Both the position numbers and the translations under genes were made by a program. A stretch of DNA of 64,000 nt from Escherichia phage vB_EcoM_JNE01. This document shows positions 1-27,618 of this stretch, in pieces. Below the pieces are notes generated by a model. It searched no databases, was not told the DNA's origin, and saw only the letters and a program-made list of their open reading frames with translations. The stretch lies in sequence record OR670491, one strand, 5' to 3'. Each line of letters begins with the position of its first letter. Within the stretch, counting starts at the first letter, position 1.

Positions 1-15
1 ATAACTAATGAAGAG

Positions 16-750
16 GTGAATAATCGAATTTCAGAAAAAATGAAAAAACTAAATATCAATGAATATGAAATTGTAGAATATAACAGTACTAGGAGCATGG
101 TTGAATATACAGTTGATGATATTTCATATACAACTAGTTACGATAAGATTATGCATCCAACTTGGAAAGGTAATCCAAGATATACAAAAGAAAGAATAAT
201 AAAATTGTCGAAAAAATATTGCAAGGGTAAAAAATTTCAATTTAATAAAATAATTGGTAATGTTAAAGGAATTAATACTATCATTGAATTAGAACTTGAA
301 AATGGTATGTTTATATATCCAAAATTTATACAATTAAAAGGAGGTTCTGACTTTAATACATCCACTGATGGTAAGATTTTAACAGAAATAATTTATCCTT
401 TGTTCGACAATTATATCACACAAAAACGTTTTGAAAATTGTAGAAATCCTGAAACTGGATACTTGTTGCCATATGATTTGTATGTTCCAGAATTTAATTT
501 ATTATTAGAAAAAGATGGAGTGCAACATTACAATCCAACAGCATATTTTAATAAAACATATGAATCATATTTGAAATTGAGAGAGAGAGATGAATTTAAA
601 AACAAATATGCCATATCAAATGGTTATAATTTCATGCGAATAGCAGATTATGAAGATCATGAAAAAATATTGAAATCTTTCCTTAAACTCATTGAAGAGA
701 ATCCAGGAAAGCAAATCGTGCAGATCTATGGTGAAGTACAAATTATCTAA
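16..750 (+). CDS. hypothetical protein (frame open to window start; may be 5' partial)
   Basis: 244-aa ORF from GTG; no in-frame stop upstream to position 1; followed by terminator/promoter hairpin at 757-790. Confidence 0.5.
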   Translation: MNNRISEKMKKLNINEYEIVEYNSTRSMVEYTVDDISYTTSYDKIMHPTWKGNPRYTKERIIKLSKKYCKGKKFQFNKIIGNVKGINTIIELELENGMFIYPKFIQLKGGSDFNTSTDGKILTEIIYPLFDNYITQKRFENCRNPETGYLLPYDLYVPEFNLLLEKDGVQHYNPTAYFNKTYESYLKLRERDEFKNKYAISNGYNFMRIADYEDHEKILKSFLKLIEENPGKQIVQIYGEVQII

Positions 751-760
751 AACAAAAGGG

Positions 761-790
761 TTGACACTAGTCAGCCCTTTTTGCTATAAT
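761..790 (+). promoter_or_regulatory. sigma70-like promoter (TTGACA-18-TATAAT) with -35 inside an inverted repeat
   Basis: TTGACA 761-766, TATAAT 785-790; AGGGTTGAC/GTCAGCCCT dyad; same module recurs at 31033, 35061, 38336, 41086. Confidence 0.55.
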
Positions 791-818
791 CATTTCATCA
801 ACTCAAGAGGATAAAGAC

Positions 819-1592
819 ATGACCCGTACAGAGAAAGCAATCCAAATCGAAAAGAACTTCAACAGCATGATGGCAGCTTTGGAATGTTTACTTGATACCC
901 AAGCTAATTCAATCAATTCCCTGATTGTATCTGGTAAAGGTGGTGTTGGTAAAACTTACAACGTTGACCAGCGTTTACAGAAAGCTGATGATAACTTTGA
1001 AATCGACTACAAAAAGATCAGCGGTAAAGTAACCACTATGGGTTTGTACGAAGCACTGTATCGTTCACGTCATGCCGCTTCAGTACTGTTACTTGATGAC
1101 GTTGATATCTTCAGTGATGAAACTAACATTGACTTGCTCAAAGCAGTGTTGGACACGTCGGAGAAGCGGGTTGTATCTTATGCAACTTCTGGTAAGTACC
1201 TGGAGCAGCAGGGTATTCCTAAGCAGTTTGAATTCCGTGGGAAGGTAATCTTCCTGACGAACAAAAACCTGTCACAGATTGCTAAAGGTAAAAGCAGTTT
1301 AGCACCACACATTGATGCACTGATTACTCGTAGTATCTTTGTTGACCTACAACTGTTCACCAACGAAGAAGTCATGATTCACATTGAGAACATCATGAAC
1401 AAGACTAACATTCTTGAGAACAATGGTGTTAATAAAAATGGTTGTAAAGCAATCCTGAACTGGATGCTGAACAACGAAGAAAACCTGCGTTCACCTTCAC
1501 TGCGTATGCCGTGCCTGATTGCTGGTTTGTACAACAAATTCCCGTATGATTGGGAATCAATGGCAGAAAACATGTTCCTGGAAAAGAACTAA
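819..1592 (+). CDS. P-loop NTPase (Walker A GKGGVGKT, Walker B LLLDDVD)
   Basis: 257-aa ORF, SD AGAGGA before ATG; Walker A/B motifs read directly in the translation. Confidence 0.7.
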   Translation: MTRTEKAIQIEKNFNSMMAALECLLDTQANSINSLIVSGKGGVGKTYNVDQRLQKADDNFEIDYKKISGKVTTMGLYEALYRSRHAASVLLLDDVDIFSDETNIDLLKAVLDTSEKRVVSYATSGKYLEQQGIPKQFEFRGKVIFLTNKNLSQIAKGKSSLAPHIDALITRSIFVDLQLFTNEEVMIHIENIMNKTNILENNGVNKNGCKAILNWMLNNEENLRSPSLRMPCLIAGLYNKFPYDWESMAENMFLEKN

Positions 1593-1595
1593 TAC

Positions 1596-1624
1596 TTGAC
1601 AGTACTACCAATGTACAGTACAAT
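1596..1624 (+). promoter_or_regulatory. sigma70-like promoter (TTGACA-17-TACAAT) for the membrane-protein array
   Basis: TTGACA 1596-1601, TACAAT 1619-1624, directly after stop of the ATPase gene. Confidence 0.5.
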
Positions 1625-1651
1625 ACCTGTATTGAAAAGCGAGGAAACGAT

Positions 1652-1981
1652 ATGCAAGAATTTATAACACAAGATTGGGTACGAAGTTTGACATTCTTCT
1701 ATATGTTGGGGTTCGTATATTATCATGTACTGGTTGGTATACTATGGTACTTTAAGAAGCGAGCGTGTTTAACTCTGTATCCAGAATGGATGATTTTATT
1801 TTCTGTCGTACAAGGCGTTGGTGTGTTATTTGGGGCAATAACACATTGGGTGTATGTGACTGACCCTAGATTAATTTATATTGCACCTTACTTTGTATTT
1901 GGATTTGGTATCATATTTTTGTGCATGAGTGCAATATATGGTTTGGTAGTTTATCGTAGAAAAATTGTTGGCGATTTATAA
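1652..1981 (+). CDS. small multi-pass membrane protein (membrane family 1/8)
   Basis: start moved to ATG at 1652 with SD GAGGAAA; hydrophobic segments; WYFKKR motif. Confidence 0.6.
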   Translation: MQEFITQDWVRSLTFFYMLGFVYYHVLVGILWYFKKRACLTLYPEWMILFSVVQGVGVLFGAITHWVYVTDPRLIYIAPYFVFGFGIIFLCMSAIYGLVVYRRKIVGDL

Positions 1982-1993
1982 GGGGATACAAAG

Positions 1994-2344
1994 ATGGGTT
2001 CTGATTACATTGAGTTTATTTTGAATAGCGGCATTGTACAAACTATTTCTATGTGTATCTTTTATCTTTATATTTTTGTTTGTGCATTTTTCTTTATTGG
2101 ATGGTACTTTAAACGTCCTTACTACGAAGTATATGCATACAGTGAAGAACTAAGTATTGCTAATAATATCTTAGCGTACTGTAGTGTAGGAGCATTAATT
2201 ATTGCAGTTGCAAGTGATAAAGGCTTAAATGTTGCATTTGCATTCTCTTATGGTGTCTGTGCATTGCCAGCATTCATTTTCTTTGGTATTATATTAGTAC
2301 TGAAATACCTTAACAAACTACGTAACCACATTCCAGAGGCATAA
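1994..2344 (+). CDS. small multi-pass membrane protein (family 2/8)
   Basis: hydrophobic ORF, GWYFKRPY motif, basic C-tail. Confidence 0.6.
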   Translation: MGSDYIEFILNSGIVQTISMCIFYLYIFVCAFFFIGWYFKRPYYEVYAYSEELSIANNILAYCSVGALIIAVASDKGLNVAFAFSYGVCALPAFIFFGIILVLKYLNKLRNHIPEA

Positions 2345-2345
2345 T

Positions 2346-2684
2346 ATGGAGTACTTTCTGAGTTTATTACCAATGCACATTCTAATCGCTACAGGTTATT
2401 ATGTATTCTTTGCAGTATTCTTTTTCCTGATGTGGTTCTTCAAACGACCCATTTCAGTCGTGATTGACCGTAACTACTGGCCTCCTATGTTACACGTTTG
2501 GTACTGGTTTTCGTGCTTTATGTCTATTATTCACTACGCTTTGATTAGTACTGGTCAACGTTCAAATGGGGAAGGTATTTGTACTGTGTTTTTTATATTA
2601 GGAACAGCGGTATATATATTTCTTCTAGTAACACCACTGATTCAGAAGTTACGTTCTAAGATTCCTGACGTGAGAGGTCACTAA
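2346..2684 (+). CDS. small multi-pass membrane protein (family 3/8)
   Basis: hydrophobic ORF, MWFFKRP motif; 1-nt gap to previous gene. Confidence 0.6.
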   Translation: MEYFLSLLPMHILIATGYYVFFAVFFFLMWFFKRPISVVIDRNYWPPMLHVWYWFSCFMSIIHYALISTGQRSNGEGICTVFFILGTAVYIFLLVTPLIQKLRSKIPDVRGH

Positions 2685-2686
2685 CA

Positions 2687-2995
2687 ATGTTTGAATTTGT
2701 AATGTTTACAGTAATTTCATTTTACTTTTGTATTTGCTGGGTTGGATTTCTCTTTGCACTGAAATCTTTTATCTTCTTTGAGAAGCAAGCAAAAGAGTTT
2801 TGGTTCCCAATCGCAGTAGTGACAGTAACATCACTGATTTGGGTATGGAAATTGTCATATGGTACATATGATGACATTCAGGTAGCACAATTTCTTCTTG
2901 GCCCTTGTGTAGTTGTATTTGTAGTAAGTTCAATTCCACCATTGTGTCGTGCAGTGAAGTCGTTTCATATGAAACAAAAAGCTAAACGCAGATAA
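2687..2995 (+). CDS. small multi-pass membrane protein (family 4/8)
   Basis: hydrophobic ORF, FFEKQ motif shared with next gene, basic tail KQKAKRR. Confidence 0.6.
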   Translation: MFEFVMFTVISFYFCICWVGFLFALKSFIFFEKQAKEFWFPIAVVTVTSLIWVWKLSYGTYDDIQVAQFLLGPCVVVFVVSSIPPLCRAVKSFHMKQKAKRR

Positions 2996-3006
2996 AGGAT
3001 AATAAC

Positions 3007-3324
3007 ATGCAAATTGAATTGATTCTATTCATCATCTGTGCTGTGTACATGTTATCGTGTTGGGTTGGATACCTGTTCGCAATCCCTGTATTTGACTTTT
3101 TTGAGAAACAATGCAAGAATGGTTTTATATGGGCGTGGGGTGCAACATTCAACAGTGTAATATGGACAGTACTACTTATATTCCATCCTCCTGAAGATAT
3201 GTACGGTGTGAGGATAGTACTGGTTATGACGCTTATATTAGTTGGATTATCAGCCTGTGAAGCACTATACAAAGTATTCACTTCCGTTCGTTTGAAGTAC
3301 TTGAATAAGAGGAAAGATGTATGA
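3007..3324 (+). CDS. small multi-pass membrane protein (family 5/8)
   Basis: hydrophobic ORF, CWVGYLFA...FFEKQ motif. Confidence 0.6.
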   Translation: MQIELILFIICAVYMLSCWVGYLFAIPVFDFFEKQCKNGFIWAWGATFNSVIWTVLLIFHPPEDMYGVRIVLVMTLILVGLSACEALYKVFTSVRLKYLNKRKDV

Positions 3325-3698
3325 TTACATTTACATTAAATGCATTGACAGTAATTCTATGCTATAGTACACTAGTCTACATTGGTAAATTCTTTTGTGT
3401 AAGATTCTTTGAAGCACAATACGATGCAGCGGCTGAAGACGATATTGATAATGTTGCTATCAGTGCTATGTGTTATTGTTTTGGTTTATTCTTCACTGTA
3501 TGTGCATGGTTAACGTACTATTATGATTTTGGATACCTAGAGGGTGACAGATTCTTACTAGTGTTGTTATTGGTATTCGGTTCATTTTGTGTCGTGATAC
3601 ACTTTTTTATTCTTGTGTGTACTAGTGTAGTATATAAGTTAGTTCCGTTCTTTAAAGATTTGCACAGTAAAATCCGTGCTAAGAAGAGAGGTGAGTGA
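3321..3698 (+). CDS. small multi-pass membrane protein (family 6/8)
   Basis: hydrophobic ORF; ATGA start/stop overlap. Confidence 0.6.
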   Translation: MITFTLNALTVILCYSTLVYIGKFFCVRFFEAQYDAAAEDDIDNVAISAMCYCFGLFFTVCAWLTYYYDFGYLEGDRFLLVLLLVFGSFCVVIHFFILVCTSVVYKLVPFFKDLHSKIRAKKRGE

Positions 3699-4051
3699 TG
3701 TTATCATTTGCGGGTCAGATTATCGTCATGGGTATTACATTATTATTCACGGTGAATAGTATTATTTTACTCGGTAAGTACTTTAATATTCGTCCAATGA
3801 ATAAGTTGTACGATAAATTAAAAGAAGATAATCCATTCTATGTATTTTTATCTGTAGCAATTGGCATAGGTTTCGTTTTAGAAGTTATTGGTTTAATTGC
3901 ATCTGCACCAGTTGTGATTGTTTTTGGAATCTTTTCTGCTACATGTGGGTTATTATTATTTTCTTTAGGTTTAATACTCGACCTATCGATTAACATTGGT
4001 ATTAAACTTAAGAAGTTTCATGAAAAGCAACTTCAGAGGGACGTAAAATGA
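3695..4051 (+). CDS. small multi-pass membrane protein (family 7/8)
   Basis: hydrophobic ORF; ATGA overlap. Confidence 0.6.
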   Translation: MMLSFAGQIIVMGITLLFTVNSIILLGKYFNIRPMNKLYDKLKEDNPFYVFLSVAIGIGFVLEVIGLIASAPVVIVFGIFSATCGLLLFSLGLILDLSINIGIKLKKFHEKQLQRDVK

Positions 4052-4419
4052 CATACCGTGAGTACTTCCTAATTGTTCATATCTTATTTTTTACCGTATT
4101 TTCTGTTGTAGGGTTGATGTATTATTTTTGTATTCAACCAGTGTACAATTACTTCCAGAAGACTACTGACACAAAGGTTGTTGGTACAATTGCTGCAATC
4201 CTATTATATATGTTGAGTATCCTTCTTATAATTGGTGAAGTATTTTTTGATGGTATGCCAAATTCAGACGGTTTGCTTATTCATGAGTTTATAACTGGTT
4301 TATATTGTTTAGTTGGGTTTATTGCATTTGTGATTTTTACAGTGTACAGGATCTATAAATTTTTCATGTATCTTGGTGGACTACACGATTCTATTCGTCA
4401 GAAACGTATGGGGGAATAA
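4048..4419 (+). CDS. small multi-pass membrane protein (family 8/8)
   Basis: hydrophobic ORF; ATGA overlap; followed by terminator. Confidence 0.6.
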   Translation: MTYREYFLIVHILFFTVFSVVGLMYYFCIQPVYNYFQKTTDTKVVGTIAAILLYMLSILLIIGEVFFDGMPNSDGLLIHEFITGLYCLVGFIAFVIFTVYRIYKFFMYLGGLHDSIRQKRMGE

Positions 4420-4424
4420 AAAAA

Positions 4425-4460
4425 TACCCAGTACTGAAATATTGTACTGGGTATTTTAAT
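4425..4460 (+). terminator. rho-independent terminator
   Basis: ACCCAGTAC-loop-GTACTGGGT hairpin followed by T-run. Confidence 0.6.
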
Positions 4461-4465
4461 ATATT

Positions 4466-4819
4466 ATGAGATTCATTAAAGCGAGCTTGCAATCACAAAA
4501 GAAATGTCAAATTATAATTGAACACGATGGTTTGAAGATATCAGCATTTGATTTTGGAAGTACTAAACATTCTATTTGCTTTAATGATCCTGACAACGCA
4601 GTGTATTGTCTTATGATTAAAGTAAACTACTTACATAAACTTATAACAGAACCTGAATATTTTGTTCGTTTCAAAAACTTTAGTACAGAGAAACTACATG
4701 AGATATATAGAATTTCAATGATTGCATATACATTTTTGGGAATACCTGATGATGAACTTGATGTGACATTCCCTGGTGAAGCTAAAATACCTAAAGAATC
4801 ATTTTGGAAGGATTTATGA
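4466..4819 (+). CDS. hypothetical protein
   Basis: 117-aa ORF after terminator. Confidence 0.5.
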   Translation: MRFIKASLQSQKKCQIIIEHDGLKISAFDFGSTKHSICFNDPDNAVYCLMIKVNYLHKLITEPEYFVRFKNFSTEKLHEIYRISMIAYTFLGIPDDELDVTFPGEAKIPKESFWKDL

Positions 4820-5457
4820 AACACAGACTTAATAAGTTTTACACTGACTATTTCAAAGATGTAAATGCATTCTTTAAAAAATACAAGATGCATACTAAAA
4901 ATGCACAGAACAGACGAAACCCAGCATTTGCCAGACCAAGTAGAAATATTACTTCATGTACACCTACGTGCTCAACGAAAAAGATGTTAAGTGCCAAAGG
5001 TATAAAGATAGCTTATATTGAAGCATATAAAGATAATGCACGTTTGAATAGTACTGATGATATTAAATTCAGTTCTGTTAAAATGAAAATTGGTGATATT
5101 CAGTGTGAAATGGCTGTTGATTTGGAATACAATCTGGAAATCAGAATGTATGTAGCTCACGATAGTTCACGAAAAGTGGAATTAATGGGAATAACATCTT
5201 ATATTTGTAAAGATACAGATGGATTTGCATTGAAAACTTCAACGTTCAACGTTGATTCGGTAGATGATCTCGATGGTGCATTAAATCATCTGATGAGTTC
5301 TGAATGTACAGACGAACTAATGTTCCAGTACTCACTGTTGTATAAAGATATTGACCAGTACATTGAAATGTGCAAAGTACTACAACGTGTATATGATATG
5401 TACATGAAGACTGGAAAACTAACTGCATTTATTTTATATAACGCAGTAGAGGTATGA
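4816..5457 (+). CDS. FQ-S family protein (outlying member)
   Basis: ATG at 4816 with SD GGAAGGA; motif DELMFQYSLLYKD shared with the 48-64 kb array. Confidence 0.55.
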   Translation: MKHRLNKFYTDYFKDVNAFFKKYKMHTKNAQNRRNPAFARPSRNITSCTPTCSTKKMLSAKGIKIAYIEAYKDNARLNSTDDIKFSSVKMKIGDIQCEMAVDLEYNLEIRMYVAHDSSRKVELMGITSYICKDTDGFALKTSTFNVDSVDDLDGALNHLMSSECTDELMFQYSLLYKDIDQYIEMCKVLQRVYDMYMKTGKLTAFILYNAVEV

Positions 5458-5458
5458 T

Positions 5459-5668
5459 ATGGAAAAGTTTTATAGTTCACTACTTCTATCTACTGAACTT
5501 GTATCATTTATGGTGTGCAAGACTAAGAAAGATTATTACATTAATAATCCAAATCCTTTAAATGATATAGAGCTATCACTTAAATTTGTAAATTGTACTG
5601 AAAATATATTAAAGTACAACAATAAAGTTTATTTTAATGTATTGAAATTGATATTTGTATATAACTAA
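5459..5668 (+). CDS. YY-family small protein (outlying member)
   Basis: C-terminus VYFNVLKLIFVY matches the 17-21 kb family. Confidence 0.5.
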   Translation: MEKFYSSLLLSTELVSFMVCKTKKDYYINNPNPLNDIELSLKFVNCTENILKYNNKVYFNVLKLIFVYN

Positions 5669-5670
5669 AA

Positions 5671-5698
5671 AGCCAGTACAAAGTACTGGCTTTATTTT
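5671..5698. terminator. bidirectional terminator between convergent genes
   Basis: AGCCAGTAC-AA-AGTACTGGCT hairpin flanked by A/T runs. Confidence 0.6.
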
Positions 5699-6902
5699 AT
5701 ATACCACGACTGGGTATTTGATATAATTGGAATTTAGTGTAGTAATCAGAAACTGTTGTCCCGGCTGCTTGTGGGATATAGCCACTCAAATACACATCCC
5801 CTTGATTATCCATATACACTGTTGTACATTCACTTGAACAGAATAACTCGGTGTTAGATACTTTAGGAGCATCAACTGGTGTTACAAATGTAGTACTTGA
5901 TGTTGTATTACCGCGACCGAGCTTACCATACGTGTTTATACCACACATATAAAGTGAATCGGCAGTTTTAACCGTAAGCCCACCATATGTTAATGAATTT
6001 GATTTCATTTCCATATCATCTGATATTGGTAGAGTGGAGATAGTGGATAATACTGTCCAAGAATTAGCGGATGAACCATTACCCAAGTTACCATCGGACT
6101 GAATCCCACTTGCACGAACTGTATATGTATTATTCGTGTTGTGTTTATATACAACCCATGATGCACTCCCACCGAGTTCATAATGTATAACAGTATTGTT
6201 GGCGAATGCACCCATTTGTGTCCATACTCTAATGTTAGTTGCATTATTACTTATACCAAGCGAACCCCATGTGTTTTGACCAGTGACCCAAAGTGTTTTA
6301 TCAATTTTCTGCACAATCACTGCACTTGAACCTGTTTTAACACTATCAACATTCGTATTAATTGACGTAAAAGTTGATAATCTAGTGGTTGTGTTATTAC
6401 CAAAATATCCCTGTGTATTCGTCCCCATTCCATATAGCGTACCATTTTCAAGTAAAACAAAAATACCCTCACCTACAAGTTGAATGTCCTTAATTTGGGA
6501 CAATTGTGTAGCATTGAATACTGATGTAAAATATGAAGTACAATCAGTATAAGTACTGGCAGTACTTAAACCTGCACCAATAGCTTTACCAACCCCACTG
6601 TAATAAAATTTATTATCTTCAGTTTGGATTAAATTAAAAGTACCTTGGGCTGTTCTGAAACGTTTTACATTTTGGTATATTAAAGTCCATTCTTTTACTT
6701 TCGCATTATGTACACCATTCCCGAATCCATAGTTTTGTGAAGTAGTTCCACCTATACCCATTAAGTCTCCATTTTTATATAATAGTAAGAGTGCTGTTGC
6801 TGGAATTACTGACGCACTATAACCATTGTACATAAAGATTTCTTTCACTTCAGGAACTTTCATTTTATTAGCGTATTTAACCATTCTTGCAAAAGGTAAC
6901 AT
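5697..6902 (-). CDS. RCC1-like beta-propeller repeat protein (paralog 1/9)
   Basis: 401 aa; N-terminus MLPFARMVKYAN; Gly/Ser/Thr-rich with G-x-N-x-x-G-[QK]-LG repeats (e.g. INTYGKLGRGN). Confidence 0.7.
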   Translation of the reverse strand: MLPFARMVKYANKMKVPEVKEIFMYNGYSASVIPATALLLLYKNGDLMGIGGTTSQNYGFGNGVHNAKVKEWTLIYQNVKRFRTAQGTFNLIQTEDNKFYYSGVGKAIGAGLSTASTYTDCTSYFTSVFNATQLSQIKDIQLVGEGIFVLLENGTLYGMGTNTQGYFGNNTTTRLSTFTSINTNVDSVKTGSSAVIVQKIDKTLWVTGQNTWGSLGISNNATNIRVWTQMGAFANNTVIHYELGGSASWVVYKHNTNNTYTVRASGIQSDGNLGNGSSANSWTVLSTISTLPISDDMEMKSNSLTYGGLTVKTADSLYMCGINTYGKLGRGNTTSSTTFVTPVDAPKVSNTELFCSSECTTVYMDNQGDVYLSGYIPQAAGTTVSDYYTKFQLYQIPSRGI

Positions 6903-6907
6903 AAAAT

Positions 6908-6930
6908 CCTCCTTTATTCATTATACTATA
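6908..6930 (-). promoter_or_regulatory. conserved upstream motif TATAGTATAATGAATAAAGGAGG (candidate promoter -10 plus SD)
   Basis: near-identical copy upstream of every RCC1-like gene. Confidence 0.4.
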
Positions 6931-6934
6931 TTTA

Positions 6935-6968
6935 GCCAAAAAGGAAAAGCCAGTACTTGAGTACTGGC
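6935..6968 (-). terminator. rho-independent terminator
   Basis: GCCAGTACTCAAGTACTGGC hairpin plus T-run on minus strand. Confidence 0.6.
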
Positions 6969-6979
6969 ATTATAAAGAA

Positions 6980-8155
6980 TCAAATTGTAGGAAGTAGGAA
7001 TTCTTTCATAACAGATGAACTACTCGCACTGACATTATCTGGTGATTTCCCTGCGTAGTATAATTTATTATTAATGAACATATATAATGTTGCATCATTC
7101 CCTGCAACAAGAGAAACCTCTTTATTAAAAACAACACCACTAGGTAAAATTGCTTCAACGAATGAACCTGATTCGCGTGTGGTATTATTTGCTAATTGAC
7201 CATTGTTATTATAACCAGTACTATAAATTTTACCTGAACTATAATACACAAGCCCACGTGTACTAGTGTTTTCTATACGAAGGAATTCACTATCATCTGG
7301 AACTGAAGTTGATAAAGTTGCATTTAACTTATAAGCGGATGTTGTATTATTATTACCCAACTGACCATAACCTTGATATCCTAGTGTATACATAGGACAT
7401 GATTCTGGTGTACCTTTAGTTATAACACCAAAATAATTCGAACTACAAAAAGCGTCTATAACTTCTGTAACAGGTGTACCCTTATATTGAACCCAAGGGA
7501 ATACATATGATTGTTGTTTGCCATTCCCTAAAGTACCAGAGCTTGTTGTTCCGGTACGCCATATTGTATCATCAAGTTTAATAATCCAGTTAGCAGATGT
7601 TATAGATGAACAGAATTTTTTAACATTATCAATTAAGTATGTAAATTTATTATAATATGATGCAGTGTTTAGCCCAAACTTAGCACCAGTATTATCACCT
7701 AACAAATATAAACTATTATCAGTACCTAAAATGACAGCATAATCATAACCTACATATATCTCTTTTATTTTTGAAATACCAAATTGTGTAAAATAGCTTG
7801 TACATTCAGTGAATGTTGTTACTGTATTTGTTGTATTATTACCTAACCATTTATCAAAACCACTAAAAAAGAATCTATCATCATTTGTGCGTATTAGACA
7901 AAAAGCGTTCCCTGTACTACACCAGAAATCTTTAACATTGCTATATATTTTTGTCCATTCCTGTACCTGTGTCGTATTACCTAGACCAAAAATACCACCA
8001 TTTTGAAGACCGATGGCCCATACTGAACCATTTTTATCAAGTAGCATTGTAGTTGTAAATGAGTATCCAGATGATGGTGTAACCAATTTAACAAAATTTG
8101 GGATATATGGCACGACCTTATTTCCGTACTTAGCCATCCTTGCAAAAGGTAACAT
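6980..8155 (-). CDS. RCC1-like beta-propeller repeat protein (paralog 2/9)
   Basis: 391 aa; N-terminus MLPFARMAKYGN; motifs YQGYGQLGNNN, YNNNGQLANN. Confidence 0.7.
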   Translation of the reverse strand: MLPFARMAKYGNKVVPYIPNFVKLVTPSSGYSFTTTMLLDKNGSVWAIGLQNGGIFGLGNTTQVQEWTKIYSNVKDFWCSTGNAFCLIRTNDDRFFFSGFDKWLGNNTTNTVTTFTECTSYFTQFGISKIKEIYVGYDYAVILGTDNSLYLLGDNTGAKFGLNTASYYNKFTYLIDNVKKFCSSITSANWIIKLDDTIWRTGTTSSGTLGNGKQQSYVFPWVQYKGTPVTEVIDAFCSSNYFGVITKGTPESCPMYTLGYQGYGQLGNNNTTSAYKLNATLSTSVPDDSEFLRIENTSTRGLVYYSSGKIYSTGYNNNGQLANNTTRESGSFVEAILPSGVVFNKEVSLVAGNDATLYMFINNKLYYAGKSPDNVSASSSSVMKEFLLPTI

Positions 8156-8190
8156 AATTTCTCTCCTTTATTCATTATAATGTATTTACC

Positions 8191-8223
8191 CAAAAAAAGA
8201 AATGCCAGTACTGGAGTACTGGC
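8191..8223 (-). terminator. rho-independent terminator
   Basis: GCCAGTACTCCAGTACTGGC hairpin plus T-run. Confidence 0.6.
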
Positions 8224-8229
8224 ATTATA

Positions 8230-21190: not shown

Positions 21191-21928
21191 GTAATCACAA
21201 GTACGCATATGTAATCATATATAAACATTTCCGTGAGAAGTTTTGAGTACTGTATAGTATTAAGAATCACCGTAGGAGCACAGAATGATTAAGAATGCAC
21301 GGGAATGATTCAGAATGATTCAGTACTGATATGTCACTAAGTAGGCAGAGGAAGTCTGCCGTACTTTTTAGTTTCCAAGCTCCTTTTCCATTTTTCAAAT
21401 TACATCAAATGCAATCAAAAGTAATCACGCAATGATTAGTACTGAATTATTACTTTCACCTTAATTTCAAATACCCGTTGACCCTTCGGGGTAAAATTCC
21501 ATTACCCCTTGAGGCTCCAGCAAAAAGTTGGTTAGTACTCCATCCTAAATCTCGATCCTAAAAATTTTGGAGTACCTATGAAATAAAAGTTGGATCTTCG
21601 AAAGTTGAAATTTACGTTGGGATGATTAGGATTTGTGAACTATAATGTAGTTCAAGTTGGAGTACAGAGTGAGAACAATCTAGAGTACTGAAAGATGAAA
21701 TAACATCTTGACAATACAATTCAGTACTGTATAATGTTGTACATAGGGTGAGGGAACGGCGGCAACTGTTCCTTAATCTCAGTATCATGTCGTGAGACAT
21801 TACGCAAGTTATATCCTCCTGTGCATAGTGCTGGTGGTTATCTCTTGAACCTCATTTTTTCTCGTGAACTAAACAGTACTGATATTAACAGAATGGTAGC
21901 AGTACTGATATTAATCTAATGCATTATG

Positions 21929-21948
21929 CCACCAGCTTGTGCTGGTGG
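21929..21948. repeat. perfect hairpin CCACCAGC-TTGT-GCTGGTGG (Chi octamer in both orientations)
   Basis: read directly; GCTGGTGG is the E. coli Chi sequence. Confidence 0.6.
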
Positions 21949-22162
21949 ATTCCCTCTAACAGTATTCAGTACTACATGATGGTCTTCATCCTCCTGGGGT
22001 AACATAGTGAAGGTTATGATGGCAGTACTGAATACTCCAAACTCAAGATGGATTAAGGGTGTAGTACTGACGGATTTTGGGTGTAGTTACCCTGGATGGA
22101 TTTTGGACGTAGATATGTCTAGCCCTCCAGAAGTCTGGAAGTAAAGATGGCTATCCATCTAG

Positions 22163-22238
22163 ACGGCTAAACGGCTAGATTTCTGGATGGCTGGACGTTT
22201 GGACGGCTAAACGGCTAAACGGCTAAACGGCTAAACGT
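22163..22238. repeat. tandem 8-mer ACGGCTAA (iteron-like) with GGATGG/GGACG satellites
   Basis: four perfect tandem copies at 22203-22234 plus two copies at 22163-22178. Confidence 0.6.
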
Positions 22239-22878
22239 CTGGATGTATGGATGGCTAAATCAAAATTTTATTTTGTTTTTTCCAATAGTTCCCCTACCGC
22301 GTGGGGATAGTTTCCCCGCAGTATCTGGTGTTAGATTTTTCTGAATCTGGAATCATTATCTTATAAACTGGGGGCAATGTCAACGGCCTGGACGGATATT
22401 TTTAAAAATTTTTTCAGTACTGAATTTTGGGCGTAACTATGCACCCGGTGGGCTTGAGTCTTTCTCGACTTGATGGAACTATTATACAGTACTGAAAAAA
22501 TAAAGCAATACCCTGGAAGCAAAAAAGTTTTAATTAATTTGCTTGCTATCCTGGGCCGGACTATGGTACTATATTTCAGTACTGAGAAAGTGCGTTTACC
22601 TGCTAGGGTGCGGGAGTGTATCCTTTTTTTATATCTTGAATTTTGGACGGATCTTCCCACCCCCTGGGGTATCCGCTTTCTCGCGTCTATGTAGTAATTA
22701 TACGCTTTTTCAGGATCAAGTCAATACCTAAAAACAAAATAATTGAAAATAATTTAACGCGTTTAAACGGCCCGTAACGCCCTGGAATGATTAGAATGGT
22801 GCAAATGTATAGCTTAGGTGTATTAATGCGTTAGAATGCGTCTGAGGCCGTTTTATGGGGTGTAGTAGTGATTTGGTT

Positions 22879-23045
22879 GATTCAGTACTGAATAATAGTA
22901 CTCCTATATAGAAAGATAGTTCCCCTGGATTGATTCAGTACTGAATGATAGTACTGAATAATAGTACTCCTATATAGAAAGATAGTTCCCCTGGATTGAT
23001 TCAGTACTGAATGATAGTACTGAATAATAGTTCCCCTATATAGAA
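22879..23045. repeat. direct repeat of a roughly 66-bp unit, about 2.7 copies
   Basis: unit GATTCAGTACTGAATGATAGTACTGAATAATAGTACTCCTATATAGAAAGATAGTTCCCCTGGATT; abuts first early promoter. Confidence 0.6.
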
Positions 23046-23077
23046 AGAAAACTATTTTAAAAGTATTTGTAGAAAGT

Positions 23078-23138
23078 ACTTGCACAGTACTGATAAAAGC
23101 GTATAATGTTTTACATCGAGAGCGGGAACTCTTCCCGC
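23078..23138 (+). promoter_or_regulatory. early-type promoter (TTGCAC-16-TATAAT, extended -10 TG) plus 5' stem-loop GCGGGAA-CTC-TTCCCGC
   Basis: consensus AGTACTTGCA...AGTACTG-TATAAT-GTTTTACATC then GC hairpin then SD. Confidence 0.55.
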
Positions 23139-23162
23139 TACACTTTAAGAGAGATTAATACG

Positions 23163-23525
23163 ATGGCGACTCAAATCACTAAAATCATTGCTAACCTGGT
23201 TAACTTCCGCGACGATATGAAAGATCTTCCGGCGGCAACGGTTAAAACTCACATTGACGCATACCGCGAACTGATTAAAATGCTGCCGCTTAAGCGTGAA
23301 CAATACGCCGCCACCGTGATGCTTGATGCGATGATCCATAAGATGATCGCCAGTGATTTAACGATGGCTTATCAGTATATGGGTGAATTGTTCGCGGTGT
23401 ATAGTAAACCAGTACCAGGAATGGAAAGTACAGAAGTATTACACGGTTTAAATTTAAAACAAGATGCATGGGATAATATGCCTCGTTTCCTGGTATGGGC
23501 TGACAGTGGCAAAATTTACGAATAA
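23163..23525 (+). CDS. hypothetical protein
   Basis: start moved to ATG at 23163 (MATQITKII) downstream of promoter hairpin; SD AAGAGAG. Confidence 0.6.
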   Translation: MATQITKIIANLVNFRDDMKDLPAATVKTHIDAYRELIKMLPLKREQYAATVMLDAMIHKMIASDLTMAYQYMGELFAVYSKPVPGMESTEVLHGLNLKQDAWDNMPRFLVWADSGKIYE

Positions 23526-23538
23526 GTTAAAAATTAGT

Positions 23539-23595
23539 TTGACAGTACTGAATAAAAGCGTATAATGTTTTACATCAGGTGGGGAATAGTTCCCC
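23539..23595 (+). promoter_or_regulatory. early-type promoter (TTGACA-16-TATAAT) plus 5' stem-loop GGGGAA-TAG-TTCCCC
   Basis: read directly. Confidence 0.55.
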
Positions 23596-23617
23596 ACTAT
23601 ATAAGAGGATTAAAAAA

Positions 23618-23857
23618 ATGGCTAAATCAAAAATGTTCTTAGGTCACAAAAATAAAACTCATTGGAATGTAAGCCTTTGGATTAATAACGATGAGGGATT
23701 GTATCGGTTGGCCCAGGACTTTATTAACGATAGCACTAATCGCAATGATGCGGCCCGTCATATGATGTTATTTTTAGAACAGACTGGACAAGATAAAACA
23801 CCGGACGGATTCAAATATAGCACTACTGCGATCCGTGCGGCAATGGTAGGAATGTAA
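23618..23857 (+). CDS. hypothetical small protein (paralog of 25659..25898)
   Basis: MAKSKMFLGHKNKTHWNVSLWINN...PDGFKYSTTAIRAAMVGM; SD AAGAGGA. Confidence 0.6.
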   Translation: MAKSKMFLGHKNKTHWNVSLWINNDEGLYRLAQDFINDSTNRNDAARHMMLFLEQTGQDKTPDGFKYSTTAIRAAMVGM

Positions 23858-23869
23858 TAGAATATATTT

Positions 23870-23906
23870 AAAGTACTATCATTTTTTTGCGATAGTACTT
23901 TATAAT
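23870..23906 (+). promoter_or_regulatory. dyad AAAGTACTATC-N10-GATAGTACTTT abutting TATAAT (operator-like)
   Basis: same dyad plus promoter upstream of the paralog at 36326-36364. Confidence 0.4.
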
Positions 23907-23943
23907 AGTGTTTTATTCATACACCAACGATAAGGGCAACAGC

Positions 23944-24210
23944 ATGAATATTAAGTATTTTGCGACGCGTGAACAAGCTCGGATCGCCGCTCGCCAGGAC
24001 GGGGCAACGTTTAAAGATATGGGCGTACAATCGGAACGTGGTAAACGTTGGGCCATTGTAAAGCGTAGTACCGCCAGATCATTACAGTACTGGTTAGCGG
24101 CCTTAAAAAGTCCCGATAGTGTATCGCGTCGAGTGGTAGAAATAAAGCTCGACCGAAAGGGCAACCGCGTGACCGTGTACCGTACTAAAAAGATAGCAGT
24201 ACTTGAATAA
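23944..24210 (+). CDS. hypothetical small protein (paralog of 36413..36808)
   Basis: MNIKYFATREQARIAARQDG...DRKGNRVTVYRTKK. Confidence 0.6.
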   Translation: MNIKYFATREQARIAARQDGATFKDMGVQSERGKRWAIVKRSTARSLQYWLAALKSPDSVSRRVVEIKLDRKGNRVTVYRTKKIAVLE

Positions 24211-24217
24211 AAAGTAC

Positions 24218-24276
24218 TTGCAAACTATGTTTAATGGCGTATAATGTTTTACATCGAGAGCGGGAACTCTTCCCGC
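24218..24276 (+). promoter_or_regulatory. early-type promoter (TTGCAA-16-TATAAT) plus 5' stem-loop GCGGGAA-CTC-TTCCCGC
   Basis: read directly. Confidence 0.55.
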
Positions 24277-24297
24277 CTATAACCTGGAGTAATAAAA

Positions 24298-24528
24298 ATG
24301 ACTAATATGTATATGACTGAAGTTAAAACCGTAAAAGATACTACCACGAATAAAACTACTTACTTACAGCGGATCTGCGGTGTATGGCAACGTATCAGCA
24401 AATCAAAGTACTTTAAATTAACATCATATGCAAATCGTTCGGATTCATTCAGTACTGAAATAAAAGGTAATAAAGTACACCAATACGGCACTTATTATTA
24501 TTACAGCCTGGACGCGATTGCAGTATAA
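24298..24528 (+). CDS. hypothetical small protein
   Basis: 76-aa ORF, SD GGAG. Confidence 0.6.
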   Translation: MTNMYMTEVKTVKDTTTNKTTYLQRICGVWQRISKSKYFKLTSYANRSDSFSTEIKGNKVHQYGTYYYYSLDAIAV

Positions 24529-24558
24529 GCAGTTTACAAATCTTTACAATTGCCGGTA

Positions 24559-24640
24559 TTGACTTATTTTGTCAGTACTGGCATAATGTATTCATTGGCA
24601 GATAAGCCGTAGCCCATAGGGTGCGGGAGTGTATCTATAG
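24559..24640 (+). promoter_or_regulatory. promoter (TTGACT/CATAAT) followed by conserved element AGCCCATAGGGTGCGGGAGTGTATCTAT
   Basis: seven copies of this element in the window, always downstream of a promoter. Confidence 0.45.
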
Positions 24641-24812
24641 AAAAATTAGTTTAGTATAGTTACAATTGTGCACCCGGTGGGTTAGCTGTTGTCATGGGGT
24701 ATATTATGCCAGTACTTGATAATTCTGTCAATACTTTTTTTTTACTATTCAGTACTGAAAACTATTTTTAAAAAGTACTTGCAAACTATGTTTAAAGGCG
24801 TATAATGTTTTA

Positions 24813-24895
24813 CATCAGGACGGGGAACGAAATAAGTAACTTCCCGTTAAGTAGCCCAGGAGTAAGGCACACGAAAAACTCCCCTGATAAAATAG
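24813..24895 (+). ncRNA. candidate structured leader / small RNA (about 80 nt)
   Basis: promoter-driven, no ORF, two hairpins; near-identical copy at 35214-35295. Confidence 0.3.
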
Positions 24896-24956
24896 TTTGA
24901 CAAATGTTTTTAAAAGCGTATAATACTTACATCAACTACTGAATGAGGGTTACAAA

Positions 24957-25568
24957 ATGAAAACTATCACTACTACTACTTTCGTTATGGATTTTTCTGA
25001 ATTGAACGCAGAACAACAAACGTCAGCTATCGAACTGGTTCGGGATCGTGAGCGTTCATGTGAGGATAATTTCTTTGCTGAGGGCGTTATCGAGTACTAT
25101 AAAGAAACAGTACTACCAGAATACGGCATAGATGAAGCTGAATTGCAATACAGTGGTTTTTGGTCGCAAGGTGACGGTGCATCAATCAGTACTGACAGCG
25201 TGGACGCAGTGAAGTTTTTACGCAAGATTAAAGCGTTAACGAAATATCGTTCTATCCGTCACTTGTTGAATGAAGATGATTTGGCAATGAGTGTAGAACG
25301 TTCACACTCTCGCTACGCACACGAAAACACGGTAAGCGGGTACATTGAATCGGCTTACACTGATTTAACCGCAAAACAAGAAACGTTAGTTAATGAGCTT
25401 GAGGAACTACTCACTGATACTATTCGTGAATTGTCCCGCAAGTTGTACCGTGATTTAGAGAATGCATATGAGGATCAATTCACTACTGAAAACATTACGG
25501 CACTGATTGAGGGTAACGAATATCAATTCAATGTTATTGATGGCGTAGTGGAATCAATCGAATATTAA
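24957..25568 (+). CDS. hypothetical protein
   Basis: 203-aa acidic ORF with its own promoter (TTGACA...TATAAT) and SD. Confidence 0.65.
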   Translation: MKTITTTTFVMDFSELNAEQQTSAIELVRDRERSCEDNFFAEGVIEYYKETVLPEYGIDEAELQYSGFWSQGDGASISTDSVDAVKFLRKIKALTKYRSIRHLLNEDDLAMSVERSHSRYAHENTVSGYIESAYTDLTAKQETLVNELEELLTDTIRELSRKLYRDLENAYEDQFTTENITALIEGNEYQFNVIDGVVESIEY

Positions 25569-25580
25569 TTTAAAAAGTAC

Positions 25581-25640
25581 TTGCAAACTAAGTTTAAAAG
25601 CGTATAATACTTTATATCGAGGCGGGGAGTGGTTCCCCGC
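25581..25640 (+). promoter_or_regulatory. early-type promoter plus 5' stem-loop GCGGGGA-GTGG-TTCCCCGC
   Basis: TTGCAA 25581-25586, TATAAT 25603-25608. Confidence 0.55.
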
Positions 25641-25658
25641 TCAAACGAGGATTTAAAA

Positions 25659-25898
25659 ATGGCTAGTACTAAAACTTACAACGGACACAAAAACAAAACT
25701 CATTGGAATGTAAGCCTTTGGATTAATAACGGTGAGTCATTGTATCGGCTTGCTCAAAGTTGCATCGCACAAAGTAGAACTAAAGATATTGCTGCGGAAT
25801 GTATGTACCGCAGATTAAAAGCCAACGGTACTACTACAACGCCGGACGGCTTTAAGTATAGCACTACTGCGATCCGTGCTGCAATGGTTGGAATGTAA
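25659..25898 (+). CDS. hypothetical small protein (paralog of 23618..23857)
   Basis: MASTKTYNGHKNKTHWNVSLWINN...PDGFKYSTTAIRAAMVGM. Confidence 0.6.
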   Translation: MASTKTYNGHKNKTHWNVSLWINNGESLYRLAQSCIAQSRTKDIAAECMYRRLKANGTTTTPDGFKYSTTAIRAAMVGM

Positions 25899-25955
25899 TA
25901 TTCAGTACTGAGATAATGGCGGGTAATAGTTCCCGCCTTTACTGAGGGTTATCTA

Positions 25956-26216
25956 ATGAGTAAAGTAATTAGCTATACAGCACTAAGCAAGACATTATCT
26001 ATTAGCCAGTGCACCGATGGTTATTGGCTATTTGATGAAACGCGTGGCATGAATTTAGCGATGCGTGCAAAAACTGCTGAGGCGGCGTATATTCAAGCAC
26101 TGGAATACTACCAGGAACGTTTAAAGGAAGTAGAAGAAGATTATAAAAGCCTCAAAGCGAAAGTAGATCATTTCGTCGGTCAATTCAACGAGGAAGACGA
26201 CGACAAACAATATTGA
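25956..26216 (+). CDS. hypothetical small protein
   Basis: 86-aa ORF preceded by hairpin GGCGGGTAATAGTTCCCGCC. Confidence 0.55.
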   Translation: MSKVISYTALSKTLSISQCTDGYWLFDETRGMNLAMRAKTAEAAYIQALEYYQERLKEVEEDYKSLKAKVDHFVGQFNEEDDDKQY

Positions 26217-26224
26217 AAAAGTAC

Positions 26225-26283
26225 TTGCAATTAGTTTTCAGTACTGTATAATGGTTTACATCAAAGGGAGAAATGGTTCTCCC
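26225..26283 (+). promoter_or_regulatory. early-type promoter plus 5' stem-loop GGGAGAA-ATGG-TTCTCCC
   Basis: TTGCAA 26225-26230, TATAAT 26247-26252. Confidence 0.55.
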
Positions 26284-26302
26284 TGGTAATGAGGAAAATA
26301 AA

Positions 26303-26524
26303 ATGGCTAATATCACTACTCTTTCCCAACTGGAAGCACTGGTGAAATCTATGCGGGAACATGCCGACAAAATCGGCGTACAAGATCCAGCCGTTTGCTT
26401 CTGCGACGAATTGAATGATGATACCCTGGTAATAGCAGAAGTCCAGGACGTTTCTAACTATTCCTCGCGTTACACTGGCGGCGTAGCAAATAAAGGCGAC
26501 TTCTGTTTATACCTTACAAAATAA
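26303..26524 (+). CDS. hypothetical small protein
   Basis: start moved to MANITTLSQ with SD GAGGAAA. Confidence 0.6.
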   Translation: MANITTLSQLEALVKSMREHADKIGVQDPAVCFCDELNDDTLVIAEVQDVSNYSSRYTGGVANKGDFCLYLTK

Positions 26525-26529
26525 CAACG

Positions 26530-26559
26530 CGGGGAGATAATAACTCCCCGTTACTTTTT
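26530..26559 (+). terminator. rho-independent terminator
   Basis: CGGGGAG-loop-CTCCCCG hairpin plus T-run. Confidence 0.6.
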
Positions 26560-26767
26560 CAGTACTGAATCATTTAATAGACGGATCTCGGCACCCGGTG
26601 GGTTAGTGACTGTTTCGTCTTGATGTAGTAATTATGCCAGTACTGGATGCACTTGTCAACAACTATTTTTCAAATACTTTTTATTAAAATACTTGCAATT
26701 AGTTTTTAAACGCGTATAATGTTTTGCATAGGGGGAGCGGTTCCCCTGGTAACTAAGGAATAATAAA

Positions 26768-27004
26768 ATGCTTGAACAAATCAAATCAACGTCTGCGAAT
26801 GTAACGGGAACGGTATCACACTTTACTAGTGATGAATCGCGTGGTGTTCCTTATTGTGCTGTACATGTAAACACTGATGGCAACTACTGGTTTACGGTTT
26901 ACGGATCATATTCATTTGGACGGCCAGGGCATCAAAAAATTCTGGATAAAGTACAACCAACGGGTAAAAATATCACTGCCGAAATGTTTTATAAAAAATC
27001 ATAA
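26768..27004 (+). CDS. hypothetical small protein
   Basis: 78-aa ORF with promoter, hairpin and SD upstream. Confidence 0.6.
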   Translation: MLEQIKSTSANVTGTVSHFTSDESRGVPYCAVHVNTDGNYWFTVYGSYSFGRPGHQKILDKVQPTGKNITAEMFYKKS

Positions 27005-27009
27005 AGTAC

Positions 27010-27068
27010 TTGCAATTAGTTTTTAGTACTGTATAATATTTTACATCGCAAGGGGAAACGGTTTCCCC
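27010..27068 (+). promoter_or_regulatory. early-type promoter plus 5' stem-loop GGGGAAA-CGG-TTTCCCC
   Basis: TTGCAA 27010-27015, TATAAT 27032-27037. Confidence 0.55.
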
Positions 27069-27088
27069 TGGTAACTAAGGATAATCAA

Positions 27089-27388
27089 ATGAAAGTTGCA
27101 ATCATCGCCCTGGCTTTATCTGTATCGTCTTTCGCTGTTAACGCTTCCGTTGATGTACCGCGTGAAAAATTCATTCAGTGCACTGTTGCAATGACTAACG
27201 AGGAAACGGCTGAGATTGTTACCAAATCCCTGGAACTGGCCCCTGCAATGTTTGCTAATGGCCCGTACCATGAAGAAGATGATCAGGGTAGCACGACCAT
27301 CTATTACGATGCAAAAAGTAAACGCGGTTCAGTTACTGTAATGGATACTGAGAAAGTTACATTCACGGGAGTAATTAATTGTTTTTAA
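27089..27388 (+). CDS. small secreted/periplasmic protein (Sec signal peptide)
   Basis: MKVAIIALALSVSSFAVNA/SVD: hydrophobic N-region with AxA cleavage motif. Confidence 0.65.
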   Translation: MKVAIIALALSVSSFAVNASVDVPREKFIQCTVAMTNEETAEIVTKSLELAPAMFANGPYHEEDDQGSTTIYYDAKSKRGSVTVMDTEKVTFTGVINCF

Positions 27389-27404
27389 TGAAGTACTGAA
27401 TCAT

Positions 27405-27434
27405 AAGCCCACTATAAGAAGTGGGCTTTTTTTA
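27405..27434 (+). terminator. rho-independent terminator
   Basis: AAGCCCACT-loop-AGTGGGCTT plus T-run. Confidence 0.65.
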
Positions 27435-27518
27435 TTGTAGTACTGAATACTTTAAAAATAGTTTTGAAATAGTAGTTGACATTACCAGGGAAAGGCGTAG
27501 AATGTATTACATCAGGAC

Positions 27519-27600: not shown

Positions 27601-27618
27601 AATTGAGGAATTAAAAAA

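Follow-up and report, generated by a model that had tools for sequence, protein, structure and literature searches.

A conserved terminator and putative late-promoter cassette in the RCC1-like gene array of an Asteriusvirus-type jumbo phage

This study concerns the intergenic spacer at positions 6903–6979 of a 64,000-nucleotide stretch of Escherichia phage vB_EcoM_JNE01 (sequence record OR670491; the whole stretch is called the window), together with its copies in an array of nine RCC1-like genes on the minus strand. Our analysis suggests that three elements are joined in the spacer, namely an intrinsic terminator followed by a T4-type late promoter and then a ribosome-binding site (RBS), and that each gene bearing this cassette is its own late transcription unit; we place the probability of this reading at about 0.7. 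The composite cassette is real and selected. It is a new member of already known kinds, and current understanding is not overturned.

Results

The phage is a jumbo coliphage of Asteriusvirus type (PBECO4/121Q/phAPEC6-like) and of the Rak2-like kind. Positions 5500–17200 are matched at 85–98% identity by 36 Escherichia and Salmonella jumbo myophages (PBECO4/121Q/phAPEC6/G17 group, genus Asteriusvirus), the nearest relative being Turkey5, in which the product of gene 5697–6902 is 99.3% identical at the protein level. A plus-strand block (1–5668) is followed by the minus-strand array (5697–16965) and, from 17067 on, by small early-type genes on the plus strand. The array proteins match Pfam RCC1, RCC1_2 and RLD and the PHROG “regulator of chromosome condensation”, and all nine genes have an MLPF N-terminus.

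Read on the minus strand, the cassette consists of a GC hairpin, a T-run, TAAATA-N3-TATAAT, AGGAGG and ATG, in this order. At 6903–6979 it reads in full GCCAGTACTCAAGTACTGGC, TTTTCCTTTTT, GGC, TAAATA, TAG, TATAAT, GAATAA, AGGAGG, ATTTT and ATG (6902); the base before TAAATA is C here and T or G in other copies. A repeat finder recovered the cassettes as families of 8–9 copies, and TAAATANAGTATAAT at 0–1 mismatch gave eight matches, every one inside the array. The original prediction for this DNA, made by a model from the sequence alone, described the same cassette of about 75 bp in each gap and before every gene. Seven gaps of 70–77 nt do share the hairpin, T-run, TAAATA-N3-TATAAT, AGGAGG and ATG, but “every gene” goes too far: the gene with its ATG at 15754 lies 8 nt after the preceding stop and has a Shine-Dalgarno sequence alone, the copy at the head of the array is without a hairpin, and the copy before 12059 is a variant with a weaker Shine-Dalgarno sequence, GGAG. 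At the exceptional junction (15755–15765), the TAG stop of gene 15763–16965 precedes the Shine-Dalgarno sequence GGAGG of the following gene by 2 nt (CAATAGGAGGGAATATG), an arrangement also found in G17 and Turkey5. This junction is a tight translational coupling that replaces the cassette.

The hairpin and T-run bear the marks of an intrinsic terminator. A terminator scan found 16 terminator-like hairpins versus 4.2 expected from shuffles; on the minus strand, hairpins with a U-tract comprise seven internal ones and one at the array end. In the window the hairpins fold with −9 to −17 kcal/mol, and those of Salmonella phage Munch reach −21; in the minimum free energy (MFE) fold of 6903–6985 (83 nt) the predicted stem-loop forms, the whole fold having −20.4 kcal/mol and z = −3.4. 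Four stem pairs flank the GTAC core; from the innermost to the outermost, 24/24, 24/24, 23/24 and 23/24 unique sequences have a canonical pair (94/96), with compensatory double changes of C-G to T-A or A-T and of G-C to A-T or C-G, whereas controls with shifted partners are canonical in 28–38%. This covariation supports the predicted AGTACT-containing terminator hairpin with T-run. GAP32_001 has an unrelated hairpin and T-run at the equivalent place, and the GenBank records of G17 and Munch already annotate the hairpins as terminators. The elements thus resemble known intrinsic terminators in their GC-rich hairpin of 7–11 bp followed by a T-run, their covarying stem and their ARNOLD-type annotation in G17 and Munch. 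Unlike those, the stem is made from the AGTACT palindrome, which is itself about 14-fold over-represented phage-wide, so that the hairpin sequence may bear a second meaning. An Rfam scan of 5400–17400 at E ≤ 1 matched no family.

The MFE fold also pairs the C-containing T-run with AAAGGAGG, which raised the idea of an anti-Shine-Dalgarno element that occludes the RBS in read-through RNA in the style of T4 gene e. This idea was discarded: across 41 unique cassettes, accessibility of the Shine-Dalgarno sequence was alike in read-through (0.29), promoter-initiated (0.35) and T-run-randomised (0.36) RNA, and the T-runs of other genera are without C.

The cassette is better conserved than the genes that it separates. 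Mean pairwise DNA identity of the paralogous units is 0.35–0.47 in the gene bodies versus 0.74–0.84 in the segment that begins with the hairpin and ends about 30 nt inside the coding sequence, the most conserved part being the Shine-Dalgarno sequence with the first ~30 nt of coding sequence (84%). The cassette does not appear to be a by-product of recent duplication. Comparison with other phages was drawn from GenBank phage records (10 phages, six genus-level groups), since IMG/VR gave no further arrays: a protein-based scan found nothing, and a DNA pattern on the conserved gene start (ATGTTACCTTTTNNNAGA) gave single chance matches only. The cassette layout recurs in phages whose RCC1-like proteins share only 25–28% identity with those of the window. 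Munch and Klebsiella phage fENko-Kae01 have ...GGCCAGTAC...GTACTGGCC TTTTTT AAT TAAATA TAG TATAAT..., Erwinia phage Hallingskeid has TAAATA CTG TATATT, Cronobacter phage GAP32 has TAAATA CTA GATATT and TAAATA CTA TATTAT, Yersinia phage fHe-Yen9-04 has TAAATA TGA TTACAA, and Xanthomonas phage XaC1 has TAAATA TAA ATTTAA.

In the 10 phages, TAAATA is present in 52/52 full-length array genes with an upstream gap of at least 40 nt, 24–50 nt (mostly 31–38) before the ATG, and in 0/36 tightly coupled array genes, although the latter keep the Shine-Dalgarno sequence and the MLPF or MIPF start. In contrast, the hexamer 3 nt downstream varies (TATAAT, TATAAC, TATAAA, TATATT, TATTAT, GATATT, GTCTGC, TTACAA and ATTTAA); within the window it is TATAAC in two of the eight copies, before 10797 and 16965. 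The original prediction had taken a TATAAT-like core about 20 nt from the start codon as the key element. Such a hexamer is present, some 17–20 nt from the ATG, but its variability indicates that it is probably not the recognition element, whereas TAAATA is invariant in the gapped genes. Its observation that no −35 is recognisable agrees with a sigma-70 scan, which calls none of the cassettes. Its alternative, that the cassette is only an RBS region copied with the duplications, is unsupported as a sole explanation, given the difference in identity between gene bodies and cassettes, the retention of the promoter-like part across genera, and the coupled genes, which retain Shine-Dalgarno sequence and MLPF start without TAAATA.

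The word TAAATA is strongly avoided outside the cassettes. Together with its reverse complement it occurs 18 times in the window versus 128 expected under a first-order model and 69 under a fourth-order model, and its observed/expected ratio (0.14) is the lowest among 1,604 hexamers with an expectation of at least 30. The cassettes account for eight of these 18 copies, and TAAATA is found 10–66 nt upstream of 0/112 non-array open reading frames (ORFs) in the window, mostly early-type genes. It is depleted 3–4-fold in the phAPEC6, Munch, fENko-Kae01, Hallingskeid and fHe-Yen9-04 loci, where TATAAT is at expectation. Stop-codon content was rejected as the cause, since the other TAA-containing hexamers TAAATT, TAAAAA and TAATAA are not depleted. 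In the first 50 kb of T4, which served as a control, depletion was milder (0.56), and two copies of TATAAATA were found, upstream of soc and I-TevII. This pattern suggests selection against a short, −35-independent promoter word.

The same motif precedes virion genes elsewhere in a relative. In phAPEC6, (T/C/A)ATAAATA without a −35 lies before the genes for the major head protein, scaffold and protease and before gp228c, gp231c, gp232, gp238, gp242, gp244 and gp245, and the late-type motif is also found upstream of baseplate genes; in this phage it often follows directly on a hairpin and T-run. Outside the structural module, it precedes three virion genes confirmed by mass spectrometry: gp035c, where a hairpin and T-run are followed by TATAAATA; gp037c; and gp077, where the upstream region reads AATAAATA CGT TATAAT (motif as AATAAATAcgtTATAAT). 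Early-type genes of phAPEC6 have TTGACA/TATAAT in place of this motif. Furthermore, phAPEC6 gp237c is a late sigma factor of the gp55 family (phrog_234 “late sigma transcription factor”, E = 8e-18), with tblastn matches to cyanophage gp55. Its gene adjoins the gp46/47 homologues and is 95–100% conserved in Asteriusvirus and 73–74% in RaK2 and CBB.

The conserved block also marks the places where closely related arrays differ. Compared with Turkey5, the window is without five Turkey5 modules and has one extra (gene 6980–8155). Four of the four indel junctions lie in overlaps of 38–119 bp within the conserved cassette/gene-start block; two of these overlaps span the cassette (110 and 119 bp), and the remaining two (38 and 49 bp) lie mostly over the initial ~37 nt of the coding sequence.

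Table 1. Features of the array and its spacers in the window. All cassettes are listed in order of position.
Feature	Position	Strand	Details or basis
End-of-array hairpin AAAGCCAGTACTTTGTACTGGCTTT, T-runs on both strands	5669–5693	.	repeat family D6
RCC1-like paralog array, nine genes	5697–16965	−	ORF list, MLPF starts, Pfam, PHROG
Array genes, first five	5697–6902, 6980–8155, 8230–9573, 9646–10797, 10869–12059	−	
Array genes, last four	12137–13318, 13395–14574 (frameshifted), 14645–15754, 15763–16965	−	
Cassette studied here: putative terminator of gene 6980–8155, then putative promoter and RBS of gene 5697–6902	6903–6979	−	
Shine-Dalgarno sequence AGGAGG, 5 nt before ATG 6902	6908–6913	−	predicted 5′ untranslated region ~21 nt
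TATAAT, second, variable A/T-rich hexamer	6920–6925	−	predicted start within (~6923, ±2)
TAAATA, proposed −10 core (−11 to −6) of T4-type late promoter	6929–6934	−	invariance, depletion, phAPEC6 virion genes
T-run TTTTCCTTTTT directly 3′ of stem, U-tract of terminator	6938–6948	−	
Terminator stem-loop GCCAGTACTCAAGTACTGGC, 8-bp stem, 4-nt loop	6949–6968	−	terminator scan, MFE fold, covariation
Cassette copy	8156–8229	−	hairpin 8226–8201, TAAATA 8188–8183, TATAAT 8179–8174
Cassette copy	9574–9645	−	hairpin 9642–9617, TAAATA 9605–9600, TATAAT 9596–9591
Cassette copy	10798–10868	−	hairpin 10861–10843, TAAATA 10829–10824, second hexamer TATAAC 10820–10815
Variant cassette	12060–12136	−	hairpin 12134–12105, compensated stem ACCAG/CTGGT, TAAATA 12097–12092, TATAAT 12088–12083
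Cassette copy	13319–13394	−	hairpin ~13390–13365, TAAATA 13350–13345, TATAAT 13341–13336
Cassette copy	14575–14644	−	hairpin 14638–14620, TAAATA 14606–14601, TATAAT 14597–14592
Head-of-array putative promoter and RBS, no hairpin: GGGGTAAATATGATATAAC...AGGAGG	16966–17000	−	TAAATA 16997–16992

At the two ends of the array the layout differs from that of the internal spacers. No TAAATA follows the end-of-array hairpin, which resembles a terminator for both directions of transcription and lies between the convergent genes 5459–5668 (plus strand) and 5697–6902 (minus strand). The head motif GGGTAAATATGA is also found in G17, fENko-Kae01 and fHe-Yen9-04. In the window it belongs to a divergent control region (16966–17066), in which the head-of-array TAAATA site stands back-to-back with a plus-strand early promoter, TTGACA-N17-TACAAT (17015–17043), that serves gene 17067–17312. 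A TTGTCA located 18 nt before the head-of-array TAAATA (gene 16965) was considered as a −35 and rejected, as it is the reverse complement of the TTGACA of this divergent promoter and is absent from the head copies of fENko-Kae01, Yersinia and Erwinia phages. In fENko-Kae01 (locus 1–65), the annotated direct terminal repeat immediately borders the RCC1-like array, which therefore lies beside a physical genome end.

Two further observations concern the array genes. The seventh gene, 13395–14574 on the minus strand, is frameshifted near 14450: the MLPF frame ends after 59 codons, and the RCC1-like frame goes on in +1 (...DGSLY / ...GNQSAKMGVTG...), which is why the ORF list missed the true MLPF start at 14574. 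This may reflect a pseudogene, a sequencing error or a programmed shift. The N-terminus MLPF/MIPFxRMxxYGN (first ~12 codons, e.g. 6902–6867) is kept across paralogs and genera and is also carried by non-RCC1 array proteins, including GAP32_002 and a Hallingskeid gene product, both annotated as virion structural proteins. It looks like a virion-targeting or assembly signal and may resemble the capsid-targeting sequence of T4 internal proteins.

AGTACT is the top hexamer in the window, with 301 copies versus 22 expected, and in every Rak2-like genus examined the loci are enriched for it 6–20-fold. Terminator stems, the spacers of early promoters (...AGTACTGTATAAT) and gene interiors all contain the hexamer; coding sequence, which makes up 72% of the window, holds 52% of the copies. 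AGTACT could be a protein-binding, modification or nuclease-related site, and our literature search found no published explanation for its over-representation. Copies are spaced ~210 bp apart on average, but 47963–52906 (4.9 kb) and 42426–45166 (2.7 kb) are free of them, with GC content unchanged (0.358–0.361 vs 0.359); these stretches may be modules of different origin or constraint. On the plus strand, 21700–41700 holds 29 copies of an early-type promoter cassette, GTATAATGTTTTACATC, versus 0.9 expected, and its units often have a GC-rich hairpin (GGGGAnnnnnTTCCCC-like) in the 5′ untranslated region before the Shine-Dalgarno sequence of each small ORF. This region forms a field of early genes like those with the PeSL repeats discussed below.

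Discussion

Our results suggest how the spacer would work. The hairpin and U-tract would end the transcript of the upstream gene, and a late promoter without a −35 and with TAAATA as its core would begin about 3 nt past the T-run, to be read by host core RNA polymerase bearing a gp55-family late sigma of the phage. The T4 late promoter TATAAATA occupies −13 to −6, with −13 poorly conserved (PMC1524935), and TAAATA corresponds to six of the eight positions of this −10 element. By this rule, transcription would start about 6 nt after TAAATA, inside the second hexamer, which would occupy about −2 to +4 of the predicted transcript, and the leader would be an A/U-rich segment of ~21 nt bearing the strong AGGAGG Shine-Dalgarno sequence. 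The predicted starts are ~6923, 8177, 9594, 10818, 12086, 13339, 14595 and 16986 (±3). Because terminator, promoter and leader all lie in its spacer, each cassette-bearing RCC1-like gene would be a short late unit of its own, while the genes without a cassette would be translationally coupled to their upstream neighbour.

Late expression would fit the products. Mass spectrometry identified eight phAPEC6 proteins of the RCC1-like family in virions (PMC7247149 Table 1), and likewise GAP32_001 (PMC5259590); as virion components, RCC1-like proteins are expected to be expressed late. ATAAATA late promoters have been predicted for the relatives CBB and GAP32 (PMC5259590), and those of the T4-like phage Aeh1 are CTAAATA (PMC1524935), so that a base other than A before TAAATA is compatible with the class. 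The TAAATA core is thus common to Aeh1, CBB and GAP32, the latter two being of the same jumbo-phage clade; their motifs were derived from upstream regions of structural genes, and in those papers they are not linked with RCC1-like arrays or terminator-fused repeats (PMC1524935; PMC5259590). The cassettes resemble T4 late promoters in a short A/T-only element, putatively of −10 type, that lacks a −35 and lies 20–50 nt before the ATG of virion genes, and in that the phage group encodes a gp55-family sigma; the T4 soc promoter, TATAAATA-ATCATGTAATTTAAATAAAGGAGAATTAC-ATG, resembles TAAATA-TAGTATAATGAATAAAGGAGGATTTT-ATG of the array. In contrast to T4, only the last six bases are conserved here, the base at −12 is T, G or C rather than A, and the word is avoided more strongly (0.14 of expectation, versus 0.56 in the first 50 kb of T4). 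The original idea of a promoter that lacks a −35 and uses a phage-encoded factor is the best-supported reading, and the promoter is probably late; the hexamer it named was probably the wrong one, TAAATA being the likely core instead of TATAAT.

Several points weigh against this interpretation. The base before TAAATA (T4 position −12) is A in 0/38 unique RCC1 cassettes, which have T, G or C instead, but about 13 of the 17 further putative late promoters in phAPEC6 have A at this position; the cassettes are therefore sub-consensus, which could be deliberate weakness, or possibly a separate class. Most copies have a second, TATAAT-like hexamer (A at position 2, T at position 6) at a fixed spacing of 3 nt, and its conservation exceeds what a passive start-site region would strictly need. 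Gene conversion (concerted evolution) could inflate conservation within a genome. The gp55-family gene lies outside the window and is known here from relatives only, its phAPEC6 product gp237c had no Pfam or PDB sequence match, and homologues of gp33 or gp45 were not detected by the authors of the CBB study (PMC5259590). Our literature search found no transcript 5′ or 3′ ends, timing, transcriptome or promoter mapping for any Asteriusvirus. In the passages searched, an RNA-seq study of the related phage PA5oct reports TTGAC/TATAATA promoters and makes no mention of a late motif.

One alternative is that TATAAT is the true −10 of a sigma-70-family promoter, recognised by host sigma-70 or by an RpoD-like phage sigma (a homologue of phAPEC6 gp066c), with TAAATA as a spacer or auxiliary element. 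The hexamer is exact in 6/8 window copies and in 40/52 gapped genes overall, the 29 early-region promoters of the window likewise have GTATAATG as their −10 core, and the genus encodes an RpoD-like sigma with regions 2–4. We nevertheless consider this explanation unlikely. A −35 at 16–18 nt and a TGn extension are both absent, and that space is filled by the stem and T-run of the terminator. The critical last T is C in 2/8 window copies (3/27 copies in the window, G17 and phAPEC6), whereas all 29 GTATAATGTTTTACATC-family promoters keep it and many have TTGACA 17 nt upstream; in other copies, the hexamer is GTCTGC, TTACAA, ATTTAA or TATAAA, with TAAATA kept in all. A start 7 nt after TATAAT would land at or within the Shine-Dalgarno sequence, and neither the invariance of TAAATA nor its genome-wide depletion is accounted for. 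We hold it very unlikely that there is no internal promoter at all, the array being read from the head promoter through leaky terminators and the block being kept by translation signals (an A/U-rich enhancer and the Shine-Dalgarno sequence) and gene conversion. Such a view would suit the peak of conservation at the Shine-Dalgarno sequence and gene start, the evident conversion or recombination at the conserved block, and the Yersinia phage fHe-Yen9-04, in which all array genes form one coupled operon and the motif occurs once, at its head. However, the coupled genes keep their Shine-Dalgarno sequence and MLPF but lack TAAATA, and TAAATA is therefore not needed for translation; moreover, TAAATA-N3-TATAAT is shared by genera that are unable to convert each other. 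A strong, covarying terminator upstream would leave the downstream genes silent without re-initiation, and yet at least eight paralogs are made, since they are present in virions.

In a further alternative, [T/G/C]TAAATA-N3-TATAAT may form a distinct subclass, using another or an additional phage factor or two tandem sigmas and giving the array its own timing or level, or it may be primarily a protein-binding or recombination site. It would make sense of the lack of A at −12 in all 38 unique cassettes from the six groups, where other sites mostly have A, of the fixed 3-nt spacing to the TATAAT-like hexamer, and of indel junctions that fall within the block. Against it, phAPEC6 has non-A variants before other virion genes (CTAAATA at gp228c; GTAAATA at gp247 and gp223c) and ATAAATA-N3/4-TATAAT at gp077, gp231c and gp244, and the cassettes thus fall inside the range of variation that ordinary late promoters show. 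Moreover, the sole conserved segment is where recombination is expected even without a dedicated function. We regard this alternative as quite unlikely and favor an ordinary, if sub-consensus, T4-type late promoter.

The arrangement recalls the PeSL and PmSL repeats of T4-like phages, in which a promoter directly follows a stem-loop terminator and the pair recurs from one intergenic space to the next, with higher conservation than the ORFs themselves (PMC2839356; PMC4122927). Indels between close relatives likewise have their junctions in those repeats (Arbiol 2010, PMC2839356; Comeau 2014, PMC4122927). The promoters of PeSL and PmSL are sigma-70 early or MotA middle ones, and the small ORFs beside them, in hyperplastic regions, are unrelated to each other, whereas the putative promoter of the cassettes is late-type, their modules are paralogs of one virion-protein family, and the conserved block reaches ~35 nt into the coding sequence. 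Since the cassettes have no −35 and no Mot box and their core is late-type, we regard them as an analogue of PeSL rather than a member. As no DNA of the array is well conserved apart from the cassette and the ~35 nt of coding sequence that follow it, this block would, as a secondary effect, provide the homology for gain and loss of whole gene modules. A stronger proposal, in which the array sites are a dedicated promoter subclass with a factor beyond or besides the gp55-like sigma and a selected “late” PeSL counterpart that drives rapid turnover of the virion-protein family, is improbable in our view.

These results provide insights into a multigene family of virion proteins that is still little understood in Asteriusvirus and in other jumbo phages of the Rak2-like kind, for which the eight predicted start sites and eight terminators offer testable unit boundaries. 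Given its near-complete purge elsewhere in the genome, TAAATA may be a potent promoter signal, and for the same reason it would offer an inexpensive way to mark late genes across whole genomes of this clade. Our study would also extend the composite terminator–promoter cassette as a shuffling joint from the early and middle genes of T4-like phages to the late genes of jumbo phages.

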